Made by a program: the position numbers and the translations under genes | Shown: in pieces, positions 6,590 to 64,000 of the stretch | Numbering within the stretch: the stretch's first letter is position 1 | Layout: each line of letters starts with the position of its first letter | The notes under the pieces: model-generated | What the model saw: the letters and a program-made list of their open reading frames with translations, nothing else | Databases searched by the model: none | What the model was told of the DNA's origin: nothing | Assembly (NCBI GenBank): GCA_963620035.1 | Contig: CAVEXN010000004.1 | Span: 13,979-77,978, forward strand | DNA from: Oscillospiraceae bacterium | GTDB taxonomy: Bacteria > Bacteroidota > Bacteroidia > Bacteroidales > WCHB1-69 | Direction of reading: 5' to 3' | Length of the DNA: 64,000 nucleotides

Positions 6590-8350
6590 TCAGTTGAACA
6601 GTTTTTCTATTTGGTCGTGGTATTTCTCGAGCAGCTTGTTGCGTTTCAGTTTGAGGGTGGGAGTGAGCTCGCCGGTTTGGACGGACCATTCGTAGCCTAT
6701 CAGGATGAAACGTTTCACCTTTTCGGTGTCGCCGAAGAAAGTGTTGTGGTAATCGACGATTTTCTTGAACTTTTTGAGCACGTCAGGATGTTCGATCATC
6801 TCTTCGTTGGTGGTGTATTCGATGCCTTTGCGCTTGCACCATGAACGCAGGTCGATGAAGTTCGGGACGATGAGGGCGGCGGCAAACTGCCGGTTTTCGC
6901 CGACTACCATAATGTTGTCAACCAGAGAATCCTCGCATATCTTGTTTTCAATGACGGTGGGCACGACATATTTGCCGAATGCAGTTTTGAACATCTCTTT
7001 TTTGCGTCCCGTGATGCGGAGGCGGCCTTCTGGCGAAAGCATGCCAAGGTCGCCGGTATGCAGCCAACCGTCGGGGTCGATGGCCTCCGCGGTAAGTTCG
7101 GGCGCATTGAAATAGCCTTTCATGACATGTCCTCCGCGGGTCAGGATTTCGCCGTCCTCCGCAATCTTGACAGTGGTGCCGGGCAAGACGTGGCCGGCCG
7201 TCCCGAACTCGAGGCCTCCTTTGAAGCCGTCGCTGACCGCTATGACCGGTGAGGTCTCCGTAGTGCCGTATCCCTCATAGACATGTATGCCCATAGCCCA
7301 GAACACCTTGGATATGCGCGGCTGGATGGCAGCGCCGCCCGTGACTATGACGTTCAGGTTGCCGCCTAAAGCCTTGTACCATTGGTTCAGCACCAGTTTG
7401 CGCGCCAACTTGAGCCGGCGCATATAGGCCTTGCTCCTGTTGAAGTCGAAGTCCAGGGCGACCTCGTTGGCCCAGAAGAAGATGTTGCGCTTCAGTCCGG
7501 TGAGTTTTCGCCCTTTAGCAATGATCTTGTCGTAGATTTTCTCGAGCAGACGGGGCACGGTGGTGAATATGTCAGGACGCAGGTCCACCATGTCGTCTTG
7601 TATTTTAGCCAGGTTCTCTGTATAGTAGATGGAAATGCCGAGATATTGCCACGAATAGTTCATCATCCTTTCATAGACATGGCACAAAGGCAAATAGCTA
7701 AGGATACGGTTGTGCTCGAGGGTGGGAATTATCGGAAGAACGCCCCGGATGTTGGTGAGGAAGTTCTCGTGCGTGAGCATCACGCCTTTGGGATGCCCGG
7801 TGGTGCCAGAGGTGTAGATGAGCGACACCACATCGTCAGGGGTGATGCTCTCCTTTATCTGCTGTAGGTATTGTGGACTCGGGTTGGATCGCCCCAACTC
7901 AATCAGCTCGTTCAGGTGGCGGTATCCTCGCAGGTTGCGGAAAGTGTAAACGCGGTCGGTCAGCGCGGGCATGTGTTCGATGATGTTGTTGATCTTCCGC
8001 AGCAGTTCCCAACCGGACACGAATATCAGCTTGATGTCGGCATGATGGAGGATGTAGTCGTATTCGCCTTCGCTTATGGTGGGGTAAATGGCGACATGGA
8101 CGGCGCCGATCTGCATGATGGCCATATCCAGGAAATTCCATTCCGGCCGGTTGGCGGTGATGGTGGCAATGCAGTCGCCTTTCTTGATGCCCAACTGCAA
8201 AAGGCCGTATGAAATGTAGTTGACCCGGTCCACATATTCTTGCGTGCTGTATTTGACCCAAATGCCGTTTTCTTTTCCGCAAATGGCATCTTCCACAGGG
8301 AATTCGGTCATGTTGCGCTCAAGAATATCAAATAGACGTCTTACTTCCAT
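6590..8350 (-). CDS. long-chain fatty acid--CoA ligase (AMP-forming)
   Basis: 586 aa. AMP-binding signature '[12 protein letters not shown]' plus 'GYGTTE' and 'TGDLG' motifs. Confidence 0.9.
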
Positions 8351-12592: not shown

Positions 12593-13618
12593 TTATTTTG
12601 ACAATATGATATATACGGGCAGGTGGTCGCTGAAGCCACCTTGATAGATGCCGCCGGCGTAGGTGCGGAACGGGTAGTTGGTGTAGGAGCCGGACATAGT
12701 GAACATGAAGTTGCGCTGGAAAACGTTGGCCTCTGTGAAACGGTACGTGTCGGGGGCGGCTTTCACCAGCGAGCCGGAAACGATGATGTTGTCGAGCATG
12801 TCCCATGAGTCGCGGTAGGCATAAGATCCGATGCCTTTGCGGTACATTTTCCACATCGGGTTGTAAAGGTCGTTTGGCGACAACGCTTTTGCGGAGGTTT
12901 TCGTCTTGAGCCCGTTCATCAGGCTTTTCGAGTCGGGGTTGTCGTTAAGGTCGCCCATGATGATGATTTTGGGGTTTACGTAGCATTGCTGCAAGGAGTC
13001 GGCGATGTGCCGTGAAAGCTGAGCGGCGGCCATGCGCAAGGGCATGCTTTTCTTTTCGCCGCCGAGTTTTGAGGGCCAATGGTTCACCAGGATGAACAGC
13101 GTGTCGGTCCGGTCGAGCACGCCGGCCATCAGCCATTGGTCGCGGGTGATGAAGTCGGGATTGCCGGCCACTTTGAGCGAAGTGGCCTTTGTGGAAATCA
13201 CGGTGAAGCGTGCCGGGTTGTAGAAAAAGGCCACATCGACGCCGCGTCTGTCGGGCGAGTCGTGGTGACAGACCTTGAGTCCGTAAGGTTTCAGCCGTTC
13301 GGTGGCGGCGAGGTCCAGCATCACCTGTTCGTTTTCCACCTCAGAGACGCCCAACACGGCAAGTCCGCCGTCCATGGCAGCAATCTCTGCAATCACGCGC
13401 GAAAGGTTTTCCAGTTTGGCGCGGTACCTTTCTGCTGTCCACATATAGTCGCCGTCGGGCAGAAACTGTTCGTCGTTCTTCAGCGGGTCGTTGACCGTGT
13501 CGAACAGGTTTTCCATGTTATAGAACCCGACAATGGCTTTTCGGTGCGGGTTCTGGGCGGAAAGCGTGGCGCCGAGGTACAGCGGCAGCAAGGCGGCGAG
13601 CAGGATCAGTCTCTTCAT
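12593..13618 (-). CDS. secreted endonuclease/exonuclease/phosphatase family protein
   Basis: Signal peptide MKRLILLAALLPLYLGATLSAQ. EEP motifs 'VGFYNMENLFD', 'IIMGDLND', 'FSDHLPVY'. Start moved to 13618 to avoid overlapping asd. Confidence 0.8.
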   Translation of the reverse strand: MKRLILLAALLPLYLGATLSAQNPHRKAIVGFYNMENLFDTVNDPLKNDEQFLPDGDYMWTAERYRAKLENLSRVIAEIAAMDGGLAVLGVSEVENEQVMLDLAATERLKPYGLKVCHHDSPDRRGVDVAFFYNPARFTVISTKATSLKVAGNPDFITRDQWLMAGVLDRTDTLFILVNHWPSKLGGEKKSMPLRMAAAQLSRHIADSLQQCYVNPKIIIMGDLNDNPDSKSLMNGLKTKTSAKALSPNDLYNPMWKMYRKGIGSYAYRDSWDMLDNIIVSGSLVKAAPDTYRFTEANVFQRNFMFTMSGSYTNYPFRTYAGGIYQGGFSDHLPVYIILSK

Positions 13619-59275: not shown

Positions 59276-59283
59276 TATTTTTG
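59276..59283 (+). promoter_or_regulatory. candidate -7 promoter box (TAnnTTTG) for the polyene-type cluster
   Basis: tatttttg, 53 nt upstream of the 59336 start. Confidence 0.45.
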
Positions 59284-59335: not shown

Positions 59336-60853
59336 ATGCAATTTACTGATATAGAAAGCATTCTGTTTGACAACGCTCCGCTATCCTTGGCTCCGGAAGT
59401 CAGGAAACGTATGGAAGACAGTTTTGATTTTCTGAAAGAATTCGCCCAAGACAAAATCATATATGGCATCACCACGGGTTTTGGCCCGATGGCGCAATAC
59501 CGCGTTTCAGACGAAGACATAAAGACATTGCAATACAACATCATACGCAGTCATTCTTGCGGTGCCGGAGAGCCATTCCCTGAAATATATGTGAAAGCCG
59601 CCATGCTGGCCCGGTATCACACCTTTGTGAAAGGCAAATCCGGGGTTGACCCTTACGCCCTTGACCTTCTGCAGACTTTCATCAACAAAGGGATCTGTCC
59701 GGTCATACCGCAGCACGGCAGCGTAGGTGCGTCTGGCGACTTGGTGCAGCTGGCACATCTTGCCCTTGCCCTCATCGGAGAAGGCGAGGTTTTCTACCAA
59801 GGGGAACGGCGCAGGACGGCCGACGTGATGTCCGAATTGGCCATCCCCCCCCTGAAACCGACCCTCCGCGAAGGTTTGGCGCTCAACAACGGCACAGCCA
59901 TGATGACCGGTGTTGGCATCGTCAACCTCCACTATGCCAACGTACTGCTCGAAACGGCGCTCTTGGCCTCTGTCATGATGAACGAAATCGCGGCCTCTTA
60001 CGACGATTTCATGTCAAAAGAGCTCAACGAACTGAAAAACCACGAAGGGCAATGCATCATCGCCGCAAAGATGACCGAAATAGCGCAAGGGTCAAAATGC
60101 CTGCGCAAACGTGCCGAGGAGATGTTCCATCATCACGAGGAGAAAGTATTCACGCACAAGGTGCAGCCTTACTATTCGCTGCGCTGTGTGCCGCAAATCC
60201 TCGGCCCAGTGCTCGACGCTATGCGCTTCACGGAGAAGATTCTCACCGAAGAGTTCAATGCGGTTGACGACAACCCCGTTGTGGACATGGATACCCGAAC
60301 CGTCTATCACGGCGGCAACTTCCACGGCGACTATGTGGCGTTTGAGATGGACAAACTCAAGATTGCCGTCACGAAGATGACGATGCTTATGGAACGGCAA
60401 CTCAATTACTTGTGCCACGACAGGATAAACGGCATCCTGCCGCCGTTCCTGAACATGGGCACTCTGGGGCTCACCTACGGCATACAGGCGCTCCAGTTCA
60501 CGGCATGTTCCACCACCGCAGAATGCCAGACACTCGCCAATCCAATGTATGTACACAGCATACCCAACAACAACGACAACCAGGACATCGTCAGCATGGG
60601 CACCAATGCGGCTATTCTCGCCAAACGGGTCATCGACAACAGTTTCCAGGTGATGGCCATCCATCTCATCGGAATCGCACAGGCGGTCGACTGCCTGAAA
60701 ATCAGCGACAGTCTCTCGCCCGTCACGGACGGTCTCTACCGCGAAATCAGAAATATCGTACCGGTAATCATCGAAGACACCCCTAAGGATGCGGACATCC
60801 GGAACGTCATCGGATTCCTCAAGAAACAACGAAACCGTTATCTGCCGCTATGA
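59336..60853 (+). CDS. MIO-dependent aromatic amino acid/histidine ammonia-lyase family enzyme
   Basis: 505 aa. 'YGITTGFG' and the MIO-forming 'GSVGASGDL' (Ala-Ser-Gly at 59729-59737). HAL/PAL/TAL fold throughout. Confidence 0.9.
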   Translation: MQFTDIESILFDNAPLSLAPEVRKRMEDSFDFLKEFAQDKIIYGITTGFGPMAQYRVSDEDIKTLQYNIIRSHSCGAGEPFPEIYVKAAMLARYHTFVKGKSGVDPYALDLLQTFINKGICPVIPQHGSVGASGDLVQLAHLALALIGEGEVFYQGERRRTADVMSELAIPPLKPTLREGLALNNGTAMMTGVGIVNLHYANVLLETALLASVMMNEIAASYDDFMSKELNELKNHEGQCIIAAKMTEIAQGSKCLRKRAEEMFHHHEEKVFTHKVQPYYSLRCVPQILGPVLDAMRFTEKILTEEFNAVDDNPVVDMDTRTVYHGGNFHGDYVAFEMDKLKIAVTKMTMLMERQLNYLCHDRINGILPPFLNMGTLGLTYGIQALQFTACSTTAECQTLANPMYVHSIPNNNDNQDIVSMGTNAAILAKRVIDNSFQVMAIHLIGIAQAVDCLKISDSLSPVTDGLYREIRNIVPVIIEDTPKDADIRNVIGFLKKQRNRYLPL

Positions 60854-61578
60854 AATACGCATTAGTCACTGGCGGTTCGCGCGGCATCGGGCGTGCGGTG
60901 AGTCTGAAACTTGCCGCGATGGGCTATGCCGTGGTCATCAACTGCCGCGACAGCATCGAAGCCGCCGGAGAGGTGAAGCGTCTGATCGAAGAAAAGGGCG
61001 GCACTGCCGAACTGCTGCCGTTCAACGTTTCAGATGCGGTCGAAACCGAAGCGGCAATCGGGAACTGGGAGTGCAGCCACCCCGACGAATACATATCCGT
61101 GCTGGTGAACAACGCCGGCATCCGGAACGACGCCTTGATGATATTCATGTCTGACGAGGCCTGGCATAGTGTTCTCGACACCACACTGAACGGCTTTTTC
61201 ACCATCACCAGACGGCTGCTCAAGAACATGCTCACCCGCAGGGACGGTCGCATCGTCAACATCGCCTCCCTGTCGGGCATCAAAGGGCTGCCCGGACAGA
61301 CCAACTATTCGGCGGCGAAAGCGGCGCTCATCGGAGCCACGAAAGCGTTGGCGCAAGAGGTGGCCGCACGCAACGTCACCGTCAATGCAGTGGCGCCGGG
61401 CTTCATCGCCACCGACATGACGAAAGACCTTGACGAAAAAGAACTGAAGAAGACCATACCTGCAAACCGATTCGGCACCCCCGAAGAGGTGGCCGCCCTG
61501 GTCGGCTTCCTCGTCTCCCCAGAAGCGGCATACATCACCGGAGAAACCGTCTCCATCAACGGGGGGCTTCACACGTGA
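60850..61578 (+). CDS. fabG: 3-oxoacyl-[ACP] reductase
   Basis: 242 aa. 'ALVTGGSRGIGRAV', 'NNAG', catalytic 'YSAAKAAL'. ATGA overlap with the lyase gene. Confidence 0.9.
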   Translation: MKYALVTGGSRGIGRAVSLKLAAMGYAVVINCRDSIEAAGEVKRLIEEKGGTAELLPFNVSDAVETEAAIGNWECSHPDEYISVLVNNAGIRNDALMIFMSDEAWHSVLDTTLNGFFTITRRLLKNMLTRRDGRIVNIASLSGIKGLPGQTNYSAAKAALIGATKALAQEVAARNVTVNAVAPGFIATDMTKDLDEKELKKTIPANRFGTPEEVAALVGFLVSPEAAYITGETVSINGGLHT

Positions 61579-61623
61579 TTTTTTAAGTTTTCAAGATAGA
61601 CAGAGAAAGGAAGAAGAGAAAAA

Positions 61624-62847
61624 ATGAGACGAGTTGTCATTACCGGAATGGGCATCTATTCTTGCCTTGGCACCAACCTTGACGAAGTGGCCGACTCCTT
61701 GCAGTCGGGAAAGTCGGGCATAGGCATCGACCCCGAAAGGATTTGTTACGGCTACCGTTCCCCACTTACCGGCATCGTGCGACGGCCGTTGCTGAAACCG
61801 CTGCTCGACCGGCGTTCACGCATCTGTCTGGCCGAGGAGGGCGAATACGCCTATATGGCCACGCGCGAAGCTTTGCAGCAAGCCCGCATCGATTCGGACT
61901 ATCTTGACAAGCATGAAGTCGGCATTCTTTACGGCAACGACTCTTCTGCAAAGGCCGTCATCGAGGCTCACACGACCGCCTCAGAATACAAGGATACCCA
62001 GATGATGGGGTCCGGCGCCATCTTCCAGTCCATGAACTCCACGGTGACGATGAACCTCTCCACCATATTCAGGCTCAAAGGCATCAACATGACCATCAGT
62101 GCCGCCTGCGCAAGCGGGTCGCATGCCGTTGGACTTGGGCTCCTGTTCATCCGCAACGGACTGCAAGACATGGTCATCTGCGGCGGCGCACAAGAGACCA
62201 ACCATCTTTCCATGGGCAGTTTTGACGGTATTGCCGTATTTTCCACCCGTACTGGAGAGCCTGCCAAGGCATCACGTCCCTTTGACCGCGACCGCGACGG
62301 GCTTGTGCCCAGCGGCGGGGCGGCAACGCTGATACTGGAGGAATATGGGCATGCCGTGAAACGCGGGGCCTCTATCCTCGCTGAAGTGACGGGCTACGGA
62401 TTCTCATCCAACGGCAACAACATCTCGCAGCCCAGCGAGCAGGGTTCAGCCATTGCCATTGAACGCGCCCTCCGTGACGCCGGGATCTCCGCCGCCGAAA
62501 TCGACTACATCAATGCACACGCCACCTCCACCAAACAGGGCGACGCACTTGAAGCACTTGCCCTGAAACACCTGTTCGCCCCTTACAACACGCCGATAAG
62601 CTCCACAAAGTCCATGACCGGACACGAATGTTGGATGGCCGGCGCCAGCGAACTGGTCTATTCCTGCCTGATGATGCAACACTCGTTCATCGCACCGAAC
62701 ATCAATTTCGAACACCCCGACGAGTTCTCTGAAGGCCTGAACATCGTCAACCATACCCGTCGGAAAGAGATCAGAACCTGCCTCTCCAACTCTTTCGGCT
62801 TCGGCGGCACCAACAGCGCCATAGTTCTCAGAAATTTAAATCTATAA
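61624..62847 (+). CDS. beta-ketoacyl-[ACP] synthase (KAS I/II-type)
   Basis: 407 aa. Active-site Cys in 'ISAACASGSHA', with His motifs 'NAHATST' and 'KSMTGHECWMAG'. Confidence 0.9.
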   Translation: MRRVVITGMGIYSCLGTNLDEVADSLQSGKSGIGIDPERICYGYRSPLTGIVRRPLLKPLLDRRSRICLAEEGEYAYMATREALQQARIDSDYLDKHEVGILYGNDSSAKAVIEAHTTASEYKDTQMMGSGAIFQSMNSTVTMNLSTIFRLKGINMTISAACASGSHAVGLGLLFIRNGLQDMVICGGAQETNHLSMGSFDGIAVFSTRTGEPAKASRPFDRDRDGLVPSGGAATLILEEYGHAVKRGASILAEVTGYGFSSNGNNISQPSEQGSAIAIERALRDAGISAAEIDYINAHATSTKQGDALEALALKHLFAPYNTPISSTKSMTGHECWMAGASELVYSCLMMQHSFIAPNINFEHPDEFSEGLNIVNHTRRKEIRTCLSNSFGFGGTNSAIVLRNLNL

Positions 62848-62863
62848 ACAACGATATCATTTT

Positions 62864-63106
62864 ATGCAAAAAACAGAAGTCATCGAAACTGTCAACCAAT
62901 TCCTTGTTGATGAAATAGAAATAGAGAAAGATCTTTTGAAGGAAGACGCACTTTTGAAAGAAGACTTGAACATTGACAGTCTTGATTTTGTAGATATAGT
63001 AGTGCTGGTAGAAAAGAAATTCGGCTTCAAGATAAAACCGGAAGAGATGACGGGCGTAAAGACGTTGGGCGATTTCTACGGCTACATCTATGAAAAGGTG
63101 AAATAG
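62864..63106 (+). CDS. acyl carrier protein
   Basis: 80 aa. Phosphopantetheine attachment motif 'LNIDSLDFVDIV'. Confidence 0.85.
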   Translation: MQKTEVIETVNQFLVDEIEIEKDLLKEDALLKEDLNIDSLDFVDIVVLVEKKFGFKIKPEEMTGVKTLGDFYGYIYEKVK

Positions 63107-63109
63107 GAA

Positions 63110-64000
63110 ATGTCCAATTCCAGACCTTGGCAAGGGAAAACCGGCGGAGGGAAGTTCGGACAGAAATGCCTGTTTGCCATACTCCGGCATGTCAGCGTAA
63201 CTGTGCTCTACCCTGTGGTTTACCTTGCTGTCCCGTTCTATTTCATCTTCTCATTCCGGTCAATCCGTGAAATATACCGCTATTTCCGCCGCATCCACGG
63301 CTTCGGCAGAGGACGTGCTTTCCAATCCACTTGCCGTAATGTGGTCATATTCGGCCGCGTCGTCATCGACAAGTTCGCCCTGCTGGCCGGACGCAGCGAC
63401 CAGTTCCGCATCGCTGTGGACAATATGGAAGTCTTCAAACAATTGCTGGATAAAGATAGCGGCTTTATGATGGCCAGTTCCCACATCGGGAACTTCGAAT
63501 TGTGTGGCCATTGCCTCTCCCAAGAGCGCAAAACCATATACGGCATCATATTCGGCGGCGAAAGCGAATCGTTCCAGCAACGCCGCGACCTGTCTCTGAA
63601 ACGCAACCATGTGAAACTTGTGCCCGTGCGTGACGACATGTCTCATCTCTTCACCATCAAGGAAGCCGTTGAAAACGGCGACATCATCACCATTCCATGC
63701 GACCGTCTTTTCGGAAGCTCCAAGATGATGACAGTTGATTTTCTCGGCCACCCGGCAGATTTCCCCATCGGGCCATTCCGCCTGGCAGCGCAGATGAACA
63801 TTCCTGTCATCGCCGTCTTCATCATGAAAGGCAAAGGGGTTTGCTACGAAGGGCATATCTTTCCGCTTGACGAAAACCTATACGGACTGAACGTCACGAT
63901 GAAAACCGAAGCTTTGCTCCGACAATTCGTGAAATCGACCGAGCAAGTCCTGCGGAAATACCCGGAACAATGGTTCAACTATTACAATTTTTGGAAATAA
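63110..64000 (+). CDS. LpxL/lysophospholipid acyltransferase-family protein
   Basis: 296 aa. N-terminal TM and an HX4(D/E) motif 'SSHIGNFE'. The stop codon occupies the last 3 nt of the window. Confidence 0.75.
   Translation: MSNSRPWQGKTGGGKFGQKCLFAILRHVSVTVLYPVVYLAVPFYFIFSFRSIREIYRYFRRIHGFGRGRAFQSTCRNVVIFGRVVIDKFALLAGRSDQFRIAVDNMEVFKQLLDKDSGFMMASSHIGNFELCGHCLSQERKTIYGIIFGGESESFQQRRDLSLKRNHVKLVPVRDDMSHLFTIKEAVENGDIITIPCDRLFGSSKMMTVDFLGHPADFPIGPFRLAAQMNIPVIAVFIMKGKGVCYEGHIFPLDENLYGLNVTMKTEALLRQFVKSTEQVLRKYPEQWFNYYNFWK

Follow-up and report, generated by a model that had tools for sequence, protein, structure and literature searches.

A flexirubin-type aryl-polyene lipid pathway probably divided between two loci in uncultured gut and rumen Bacteroidales

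A 64,000-nucleotide (nt) stretch of contig CAVEXN010000004.1 (here referred to as the window) ends within an operon, locus A, that starts at position 59336 and has the gene content of a flexirubin or aryl-polyene (APE) cluster. We conclude, with a probability of about 0.78, that locus A is the front half of a flexirubin-type aryl-polyene lipid pathway of an uncultured gut or rumen Bacteroidales and that the back half is a second locus, locus B, in the same genome. Products of both loci pass curated models for flexirubin proteins, the two loci occur together in the same assemblies, and relatives carry the two gene sets contiguously. Few bacterial biosynthetic families are as widespread as the flexirubin-type and aryl-polyene clusters; we know of no product of this type that has been characterized from anaerobic gut or rumen Bacteroidales. 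The product here is likewise uncharacterized. The cluster is of an ordinary, known kind in a split and slightly reduced arrangement; its particulars are the two-locus layout, the fusion of a ketosynthase (KS) to a chain-length factor (CLF), and the reduced KS complement.

Results

The initial annotation had described five plus-strand open reading frames (ORFs) at the right-hand end of the window, the first two overlapping in ATGA, and had assigned them to the flexirubin/aryl-polyene family. All five ORFs are present (Table 1), the overlap of the lyase stop and the reductase start is seen at 60850, and the family call is correct: curated models are passed by FlxA and FlxB and, among the genes described below, by FlxJ and LolA2_flexi. 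The lyase scored 809.5 bits with NCBIfam model NF053541 (FlxA_rubin_TAL; cutoff, 700) and remained below the cutoffs of the histidine ammonia-lyase (HAL) models (431 versus 524). The reductase scored 397.2 bits with NF053542 (FlxB_rubin_SDR; cutoff, 340); it also passed one FabG model (280.5 versus 273), far under its FlxB score. The best NCBIfam model for the ketosynthase, KS_A, was KAS I, at 356 bits and far under the cutoff of 630, with FabF at 331 versus 494. The acyl carrier protein (ACP), ACP1, was under every AcpP cutoff (62 versus 71, 61 versus 66, and 60 versus 65). Since KS_A and ACP1 are both below these cutoffs, these genes are not housekeeping fab genes; phylogenetic clustering with such genes is what the initial annotation had listed against its own call. 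Furthermore, KS_A adjoins flxA and flxB syntenically in dozens of loci.

The catalytic residues of all five proteins are intact. The lyase has the ASG triad of the 4-methylideneimidazole-5-one (MIO) group at residues 132 to 134, the reductase has the G-x3-G-x-G, NAG, and Y-x3-K motifs, and KS_A has Cys162, His299, and His334. ACP1 has its DSL attachment site at Ser39, and the acyltransferase has an H-x4-E motif at His125. The "switch" of the lyase is Ser72-His73. We considered this HAL-like Ser-His pair as an argument against tyrosine specificity and rejected it, since the pair is present in 66 of 66 homologs compared and also in the assayed FlxA, which has a HAL-like motif 1 and yet converts tyrosine, not histidine (Schoner et al., PMC3992019). 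The feature thus fits membership in FlxA, and the window lyase is a predicted FlxA-type tyrosine ammonia-lyase.

The end of locus A was read from other assemblies. An exact-protein look-up showed that contigs of three metagenome-assembled genomes (MAGs; GCA_963605675.1, GCA_963618755.1, and GCA_963613265.1) and of several run assemblies carry the ACP and KS of the window. The MAG contigs are 99.90 to 99.96% identical to the window over 11 to 12 kb, and hence their downstream sequence stands in for that of the window. In all matching contigs, the acyltransferase gene is followed by only three further genes on the same strand, for a methyltransferase, a hot-dog protein, and a thioesterase. Convergent prs, prfB, recX, rng, and HU genes begin 87 bases past the thioesterase gene, across a 15-bp hairpin. 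Locus A is therefore an eight-gene operon that ends 3 kb beyond the window. The initial annotation had described the cluster as cut by the window edge, and the operon is indeed interrupted at 64000, but no gene is truncated: the acyltransferase reaches its stop codon, TAA, at bases 63998 to 64000 (last letters of the window, TGGAAATAA), and the protein has the same length of 296 amino acids in the matching MAG contig L001. The remainder of the cluster had been placed beyond 64000, with a CLF, dehydratases, a LolA-like protein, and export genes. Three genes do lie there, but CLF, LolA, and export genes are not directly downstream. Locally, this expectation largely fails; at the level of the pathway, it survives through the second locus in the same MAGs. 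A search for back-half genes that covered the window and the adjoining flanks of the closest contigs returned nothing but KS_A itself.

Table 1. Features of locus A and its promoter region. Positions are those of the window unless a contig is given.
Feature	Position	Strand	Details
Bacteroidota-type -7 promoter box TATTTTTG (TAnnTTTG)	59276-59283	+	Read directly; 53 nt before the flxA ATG
flxA, predicted MIO-dependent tyrosine ammonia-lyase, flexirubin type	59336-60853	+	505 amino acids; PF00221, 536 bits
flxB, short-chain dehydrogenase/reductase (SDR) ketoreductase	60850-61578	+	242 amino acids; start overlaps flxA stop
KS_A, FabB-like elongating ketosynthase, FlxC position	61624-62847	+	407 amino acids; PF00109 and PF02801
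ACP1, dedicated acyl carrier protein	62864-63106	+	80 amino acids; PF00550
LpxL/lysophospholipid-type acyltransferase	63110-64000	+	296 amino acids, complete; PF03279, 63.2 bits
FlxJ-family methyltransferase	L001:11181-12263	Same as locus A	NF053543, 598.9 versus 560; 44 nt past window end; contig 99.96% identical
His-less hot-dog protein	After flxJ	Same as locus A	134 amino acids; precomputed PF22817 ApeP-like; weak NCBIfam FabZ match, 33 bits
4HBT/YbgC-type thioesterase	Last gene of locus A	Same as locus A	

Relatives of FlxA were found at 68 loci, mostly in uncultured Bacteroidales sampled from the rumen, horses, chickens, and termites. In about 15 of the 68, the same eight genes run straight into further KS-like genes. 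L012 and L013, which show this contiguity, are the nearest relatives outside the window's clade, with 79% identity in FlxA and the same lolCE-porZ-recO genes upstream. In L013, the eight genes continue with KS2 (399 amino acids), an unknown protein, a second ACP (ACP2), a KS-CLF fusion of 776 amino acids, a small membrane protein, an IS200 insertion, and LolA. An ApeI-like hot-dog protein, a GT2 glycosyltransferase, and an EamA transporter complete this continuation, after which restriction-modification genes begin. The IS200-type transposase (PF01797) lies at 13172 to 13621 of L158 (JAFZZK010000035), between the small membrane protein and LolA of the 79% relative; this insertion may bear on how clusters of this kind become fragmented.

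Searching with the fusion protein of L013, we detected a KS-CLF copy on L171, another contig of the assembly that holds the sister-species contig L011. The gene order on L171 is ABC ATPase, ABC-2 permease, ACP2, KS-CLF, small membrane protein, LolA, hot-dog protein, and two GT2 genes. Protein-database and cluster look-ups then placed variants of a 761-amino-acid KS-CLF in the assemblies of the window's own species: P0121 on CAVCWK010000024 of GCA_963605675.1 and in run SRR13434676, P0127 on CAVDYX010000031 of GCA_963613265.1, and P0129 in run SRR13434605. Locus A and locus B are thus found together in GCA_963605675.1 (L001 and L200, respectively), GCA_963613265.1 (L003 and L203), SRR13434676 (L004 and L201), and SRR13434605 (L005 and L202), and the same pairing holds in the sister species CAVCMI01 (L011 and L171). 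At least three species of the clade carry the two loci at physically separate places.

On L200, locus B comprises ACP2, KS-CLF, a 117-amino-acid ArnE/F-like membrane protein, LolA, an ApeI-like protein, and a GT2 protein, and the next gene is for a monogalactosyldiacylglycerol (MGDG) synthase-like glycosyltransferase. The LolA protein (L200:12652-13272) passes NF053544, LolA2_flexi (158.3 versus a cutoff of 125), and ACP2 passes the APE-type model PRK09184 (87 versus 70). ACP1 and ACP2 both carry a DS(L/I) motif. The N-terminal half of the KS-CLF fusion has the Cys-His-His residues, and the C-terminal half lacks all three, as expected of a CLF. The N-terminal half matches the solved chain 6qsp_A (162 bits), which we take to be from the Xenorhabdus ApeO:ApeC complex. 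Locus B has no ketoreductase of its own. Upstream of it on L200 are ftsH and rsfS (both on the minus strand) and genes for a type IX secretion system (T9SS)-sorted peptidase, WbqC, an unknown protein (a 627-amino-acid gene), DUF4290, the ABC ATPase, and the ABC-2 permease. The gap between the ABC-2 permease gene and ACP2 is 59 nt long (L200 9676 to 9734) and contains no TAnnTTTG box; locus B may be cotranscribed with the upstream DUF4290 and ABC transporter genes. The adjacency of the ABC-2 transporter and locus B is confined to the window's clade. In run SRR13434605, the ApeI-like gene (L202 6422 to 6652) is called at 76 rather than 122 amino acids; a frameshift variant or an assembly error is possible.

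The two loci encode one hot-dog protein each. The locus A protein has a FabZ-like "LIENMAQ" helix with the Glu conserved and lacks the conserved His. The locus B protein has the motif "HFPGQPIMPG" with the His conserved and has Gln at the Glu position. It carries a precomputed match to PF22818 (ApeI-like), and in our own hmmscan its sister-species ortholog gave a subthreshold ApeI-like match of 18 bits. A sequence search for solved relatives returned none. The active site of FabZ-type dehydratases sits where the two subunits of the dimer meet, one contributing the His and the other the Glu. The two hot-dog proteins look like complementary halves of one heterodimeric dehydratase, and if they are, loci A and B would depend on each other.

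Proposed pathway

The mechanism proposed here is modeled on the studied flx and ape systems. Gene content, family membership, intact catalytic residues, the co-occurrence of the two loci, their contiguity in relatives, and purifying selection are observed, and the order of reactions, the heterodimer, the product, and the location of the product are inferred. FlxA would convert tyrosine to 4-coumarate, and the coumaroyl starter would be loaded onto an ACP by an activating enzyme encoded in neither locus. KS_A and the KS-CLF pair would extend the chain with malonyl units, FlxB would reduce each beta-keto group, and the hot-dog heterodimer would carry out the dehydration, its locus A subunit contributing the catalytic Glu and its locus B subunit the catalytic His. 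With no enoyl reductase acting, a conjugated polyene would accumulate. FlxJ would methylate the aryl ring, the acyltransferase and glycosyltransferase would anchor the chain on a lipid or sugar, and LolA2 would aid transfer to the outer membrane.

A more specific version of this proposal is tentative and, taken as a whole, unlikely to hold in every part. It posits a pared-down two-locus pathway with three KS-type domains and without KS2, a cluster-encoded ligase, an MMPL exporter, or dialkylresorcinol genes. The pathway would yield an aryl-polyene glycolipid that is shorter or anchored in another way, unlike flexirubin or the proteobacterial APE lipids. Transcription would read through into locus B from the ABC-2 transporter genes upstream, that transporter would export the lipid, and the Glu/His dehydratase would make the two loci obligatorily interdependent.

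Alternative explanations

Several observations weigh against a single pathway encoded by loci A and B. Their linkage rests on metagenome binning (two MAGs, two runs, and the sister species) and not on a closed genome. KS2 and its unknown neighbor were not traced to the window's clade: among the matches listed, at 58% identity or more, the best non-self matches were 75% and 68% identical and came from other organisms and contexts, and chain length and product may differ from those of the relatives. No AMP-binding/adenylating or coenzyme A (CoA)-ligase gene of the FlxY or ApeH type is present in locus A, locus B, or the contiguous relative, which leaves the loading of the starter unexplained. 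No MMPL/RND exporter of the ApeM type is present in these three places either; the initial annotation had expected an MMPL-type export gene, and neither locus has one. The transporter-like genes found instead are those for the small ArnE/F-like membrane protein, the EamA protein (L158), and the adjoining ABC-2 pair. Finally, the locus A hot-dog protein had no Pfam match in our own hmmscan.

Only a single adenylating-enzyme signature occurs in the window, an AMP-binding acyl-CoA ligase of 586 amino acids at 6590 to 8350 on the minus strand. It is FadD11-like (323 bits) and below every curated cutoff. We rejected it as the starter ligase because it is too generic and, at 51 kb from locus A, too far away.

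Locus A might instead be self-contained, with KS_A alone making a short coumarate-derived or other acyl chain that the LpxL-like acyltransferase attaches to lipid, and with locus B independent of it. In favor of this, locus A encodes a KS, a ketoreductase (KR), an ACP, a hot-dog protein, a thioesterase, and an acyltransferase of its own; recO and the hairpin before the convergent prs mark its two ends; and it stands apart from locus B in the species of the clade noted above. However, the catalytic His missing from its hot-dog protein is supplied by the locus B partner, locus B lacks the ketoreductase that locus A has, both gene sets are contiguous in most relatives, and both loci have been retained together under purifying selection (see below). 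We consider this explanation improbable.

Alternatively, the product might be a flexirubin in the strict sense, in which an aryl-polyene acid forms an ester with a dialkylresorcinol; darA, darB, and a FlxY-type ligase would then be encoded at further loci. Four flexirubin-specific NCBIfam models are passed, as described above, and the dar genes of Chitinophaga have been reported as a cluster separate from flxA-flxY. Against this, locus A, locus B, and L158 have no DarA/DarB-like gene, the contiguous cluster in the genome of L013 contains neither a DarA/DarB-like gene nor a ligase gene, and the combination of an LpxL-like acyltransferase with a GT2 protein resembles the anchoring route of APE lipids (10.1101/2020.12.19.423268). 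The chance that a strict flexirubin is made is slim.

With respect to maintenance, each of the eight locus A and six locus B genes retains its full length and is free of stops in three to four species of the clade. The ratios of nonsynonymous to synonymous substitution rates (dN/dS) of these 14 pathway genes are 0.02 to 0.31, the same range as for the neighboring porZ and recO. Together, the intact genes and these ratios indicate that the split pathway is maintained and is not decaying. Hence it is very improbable that the split cluster is an inactive remnant that has lost KS2, a starter ligase, and an exporter. The failure to trace KS2 and its unknown neighbor to the clade, and the lack of ligase and MMPL genes in either locus, would suit such a remnant, but the catalytic residues are intact, and ligase and MMPL genes are missing from the contiguous relatives as well, which means that their absence is not peculiar to the clade.

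The possibility that the operon consists of housekeeping genes for type II fatty-acid synthesis (fabB/F, fabG, and acpP) beside a hut-pathway HAL, to which the closeness of KS_A to solved FabB structures (294 bits, its nearest), the FabG match of the reductase, and the HAL-like Ser-His of the lyase might point, is already refuted by the model scores for KS_A, ACP1, FlxB, and FlxA given above and by synteny, with no hutU or hutI neighbors and with FlxJ, thioesterase, and KS-CLF genes alongside across dozens of loci.

Comparison with known systems

The flexirubin polyene cluster of Chitinophaga pinensis DSM 2588, flxA-flxY, corresponds to Cpin_1853-1877 (Schoner et al. 2014, PMC3992019), and the flexirubin cluster of Flavobacterium johnsoniae has lolA2/lolB2 (PMC11885536). 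As in these clusters, the FlxA lyase comes first here, followed by the FlxB reductase and a KS. The FlxJ-family methyltransferase, LolA2, several KS-like proteins, dehydratases, thioesterase, acyltransferase, and glycosyltransferase are also shared. In contrast, there are two loci of eight and about six genes rather than one cluster of about 25, with three KS-type domains in place of five KS genes. Neither locus was seen to encode a FlxY coumarate-CoA ligase, a predicted exporter, or DarA/DarB, and the pathway belongs to an uncultured anaerobe of the gut or rumen within the Bacteroidales.

The core set of the ape system comprises the KS proteins ApeO/R, the ACPs ApeE/F, the CLF ApeC, the dehydratases ApeI/P, the KR ApeQ, and the transporter ApeM (10.1101/2020.12.19.423268). 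Of this set, the KS, CLF, two ACPs, and KR are all present across loci A and B, with FlxB serving as the KR. Compared with apeB-R of Xenorhabdus doucetiae and Escherichia coli CFT073 (10.1101/2020.12.19.423268; PMC8253772), the two loci share two ACPs, a KS plus a KS/CLF pair, a KR, two small hot-dog proteins that are putative dehydratase subunits of the ApeI/ApeP types, a methyltransferase, a thioesterase, a lysophospholipid-type acyltransferase, a glycosyltransferase, and a LolA-like protein. They differ in that the starter would come from tyrosine via an ammonia-lyase rather than from 4-hydroxybenzoate via ApeH, that KS and CLF are fused in one protein of 761 amino acids, and that no ApeM MMPL transporter was seen; sequence identity is low.

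Genome mining has yielded arylpolyene-type biosynthetic gene clusters (BGCs) in gut Bacteroides, such as pBGC-12 of Bacteroides xylanisolvens (PMC12940132), and a "flexirubin gene cluster cloud" spans five of six Bacteroidetes classes (PMC9248904). Like these, the pathway described here is a flexirubin-like cluster of anaerobic Bacteroidia that is known from sequence alone and has an uncharacterized product. Those reports describe single antiSMASH-called clusters, whereas here there are two loci, and the extra KS2 of the relatives was not found. Little of this is new in kind. Because the pathway is split, cluster callers that work on a single contig or a single window see only a "partial" cluster. 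The His-only and Glu-only hot-dog subunits offer a simple way to test the mutual dependence of loci A and B, and the steady absence of a starter-activating ligase from the Bacteroidales versions poses a small biochemical question.

Promoter region and neighboring genes

The genes from flxA to the acyltransferase are spaced at -4, 45, 16, and 3 nt, and a 71-nt gap separates recO from flxA. The promoter box that the initial annotation had placed at 59276 is real, and a TAnnTTTG box before flxA is kept in two sister species (L010 and L011). TAnnTTTG is not significantly enriched in the window, with 34 occurrences against 25 expected. We rejected the motif count as statistical support for the box, since 34 was reached in 5 of 100 shuffles. 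The worth of the box is its position and its conservation in the sister species, not its count.

The upstream neighbors of locus A are genes for a lolC/E-like permease, PorZ, and RecO; they place the organism in Bacteroidota. The T9SS protein PorZ scored 568 bits against a cutoff of 260. Bacteroidales-type contigs with PorZ and flexirubin genes also occur in CAV-prefixed MAG records (L011, L017, L018, L020, L022, and L105) whose titles name Oscillospiraceae, Flexilinea, Segatella copri, Acutalibacteraceae, Erysipelotrichaceae, or Agathobaculum; the labels look unreliable, or the bins mixed.

Among the Bacteroidales relatives, some have a gene for a B12-binding radical S-adenosylmethionine (SAM) protein in place of flxJ after the acyltransferase gene, and one has an amine-oxidase/desaturase-like flavoprotein gene between those for the KS and the ACP (the genes of these two kinds are at L019, 12734 to 14095; L035, 14568 to 15923; and L064, 13569 to 15062). 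Downstream of locus A, the match of the prfB ORF (L001 14255 to 15184, minus strand) to the release factor 2 (RF2) model starts only at model position 49, which would fit the programmed +1 frameshift known to occur early in prfB.

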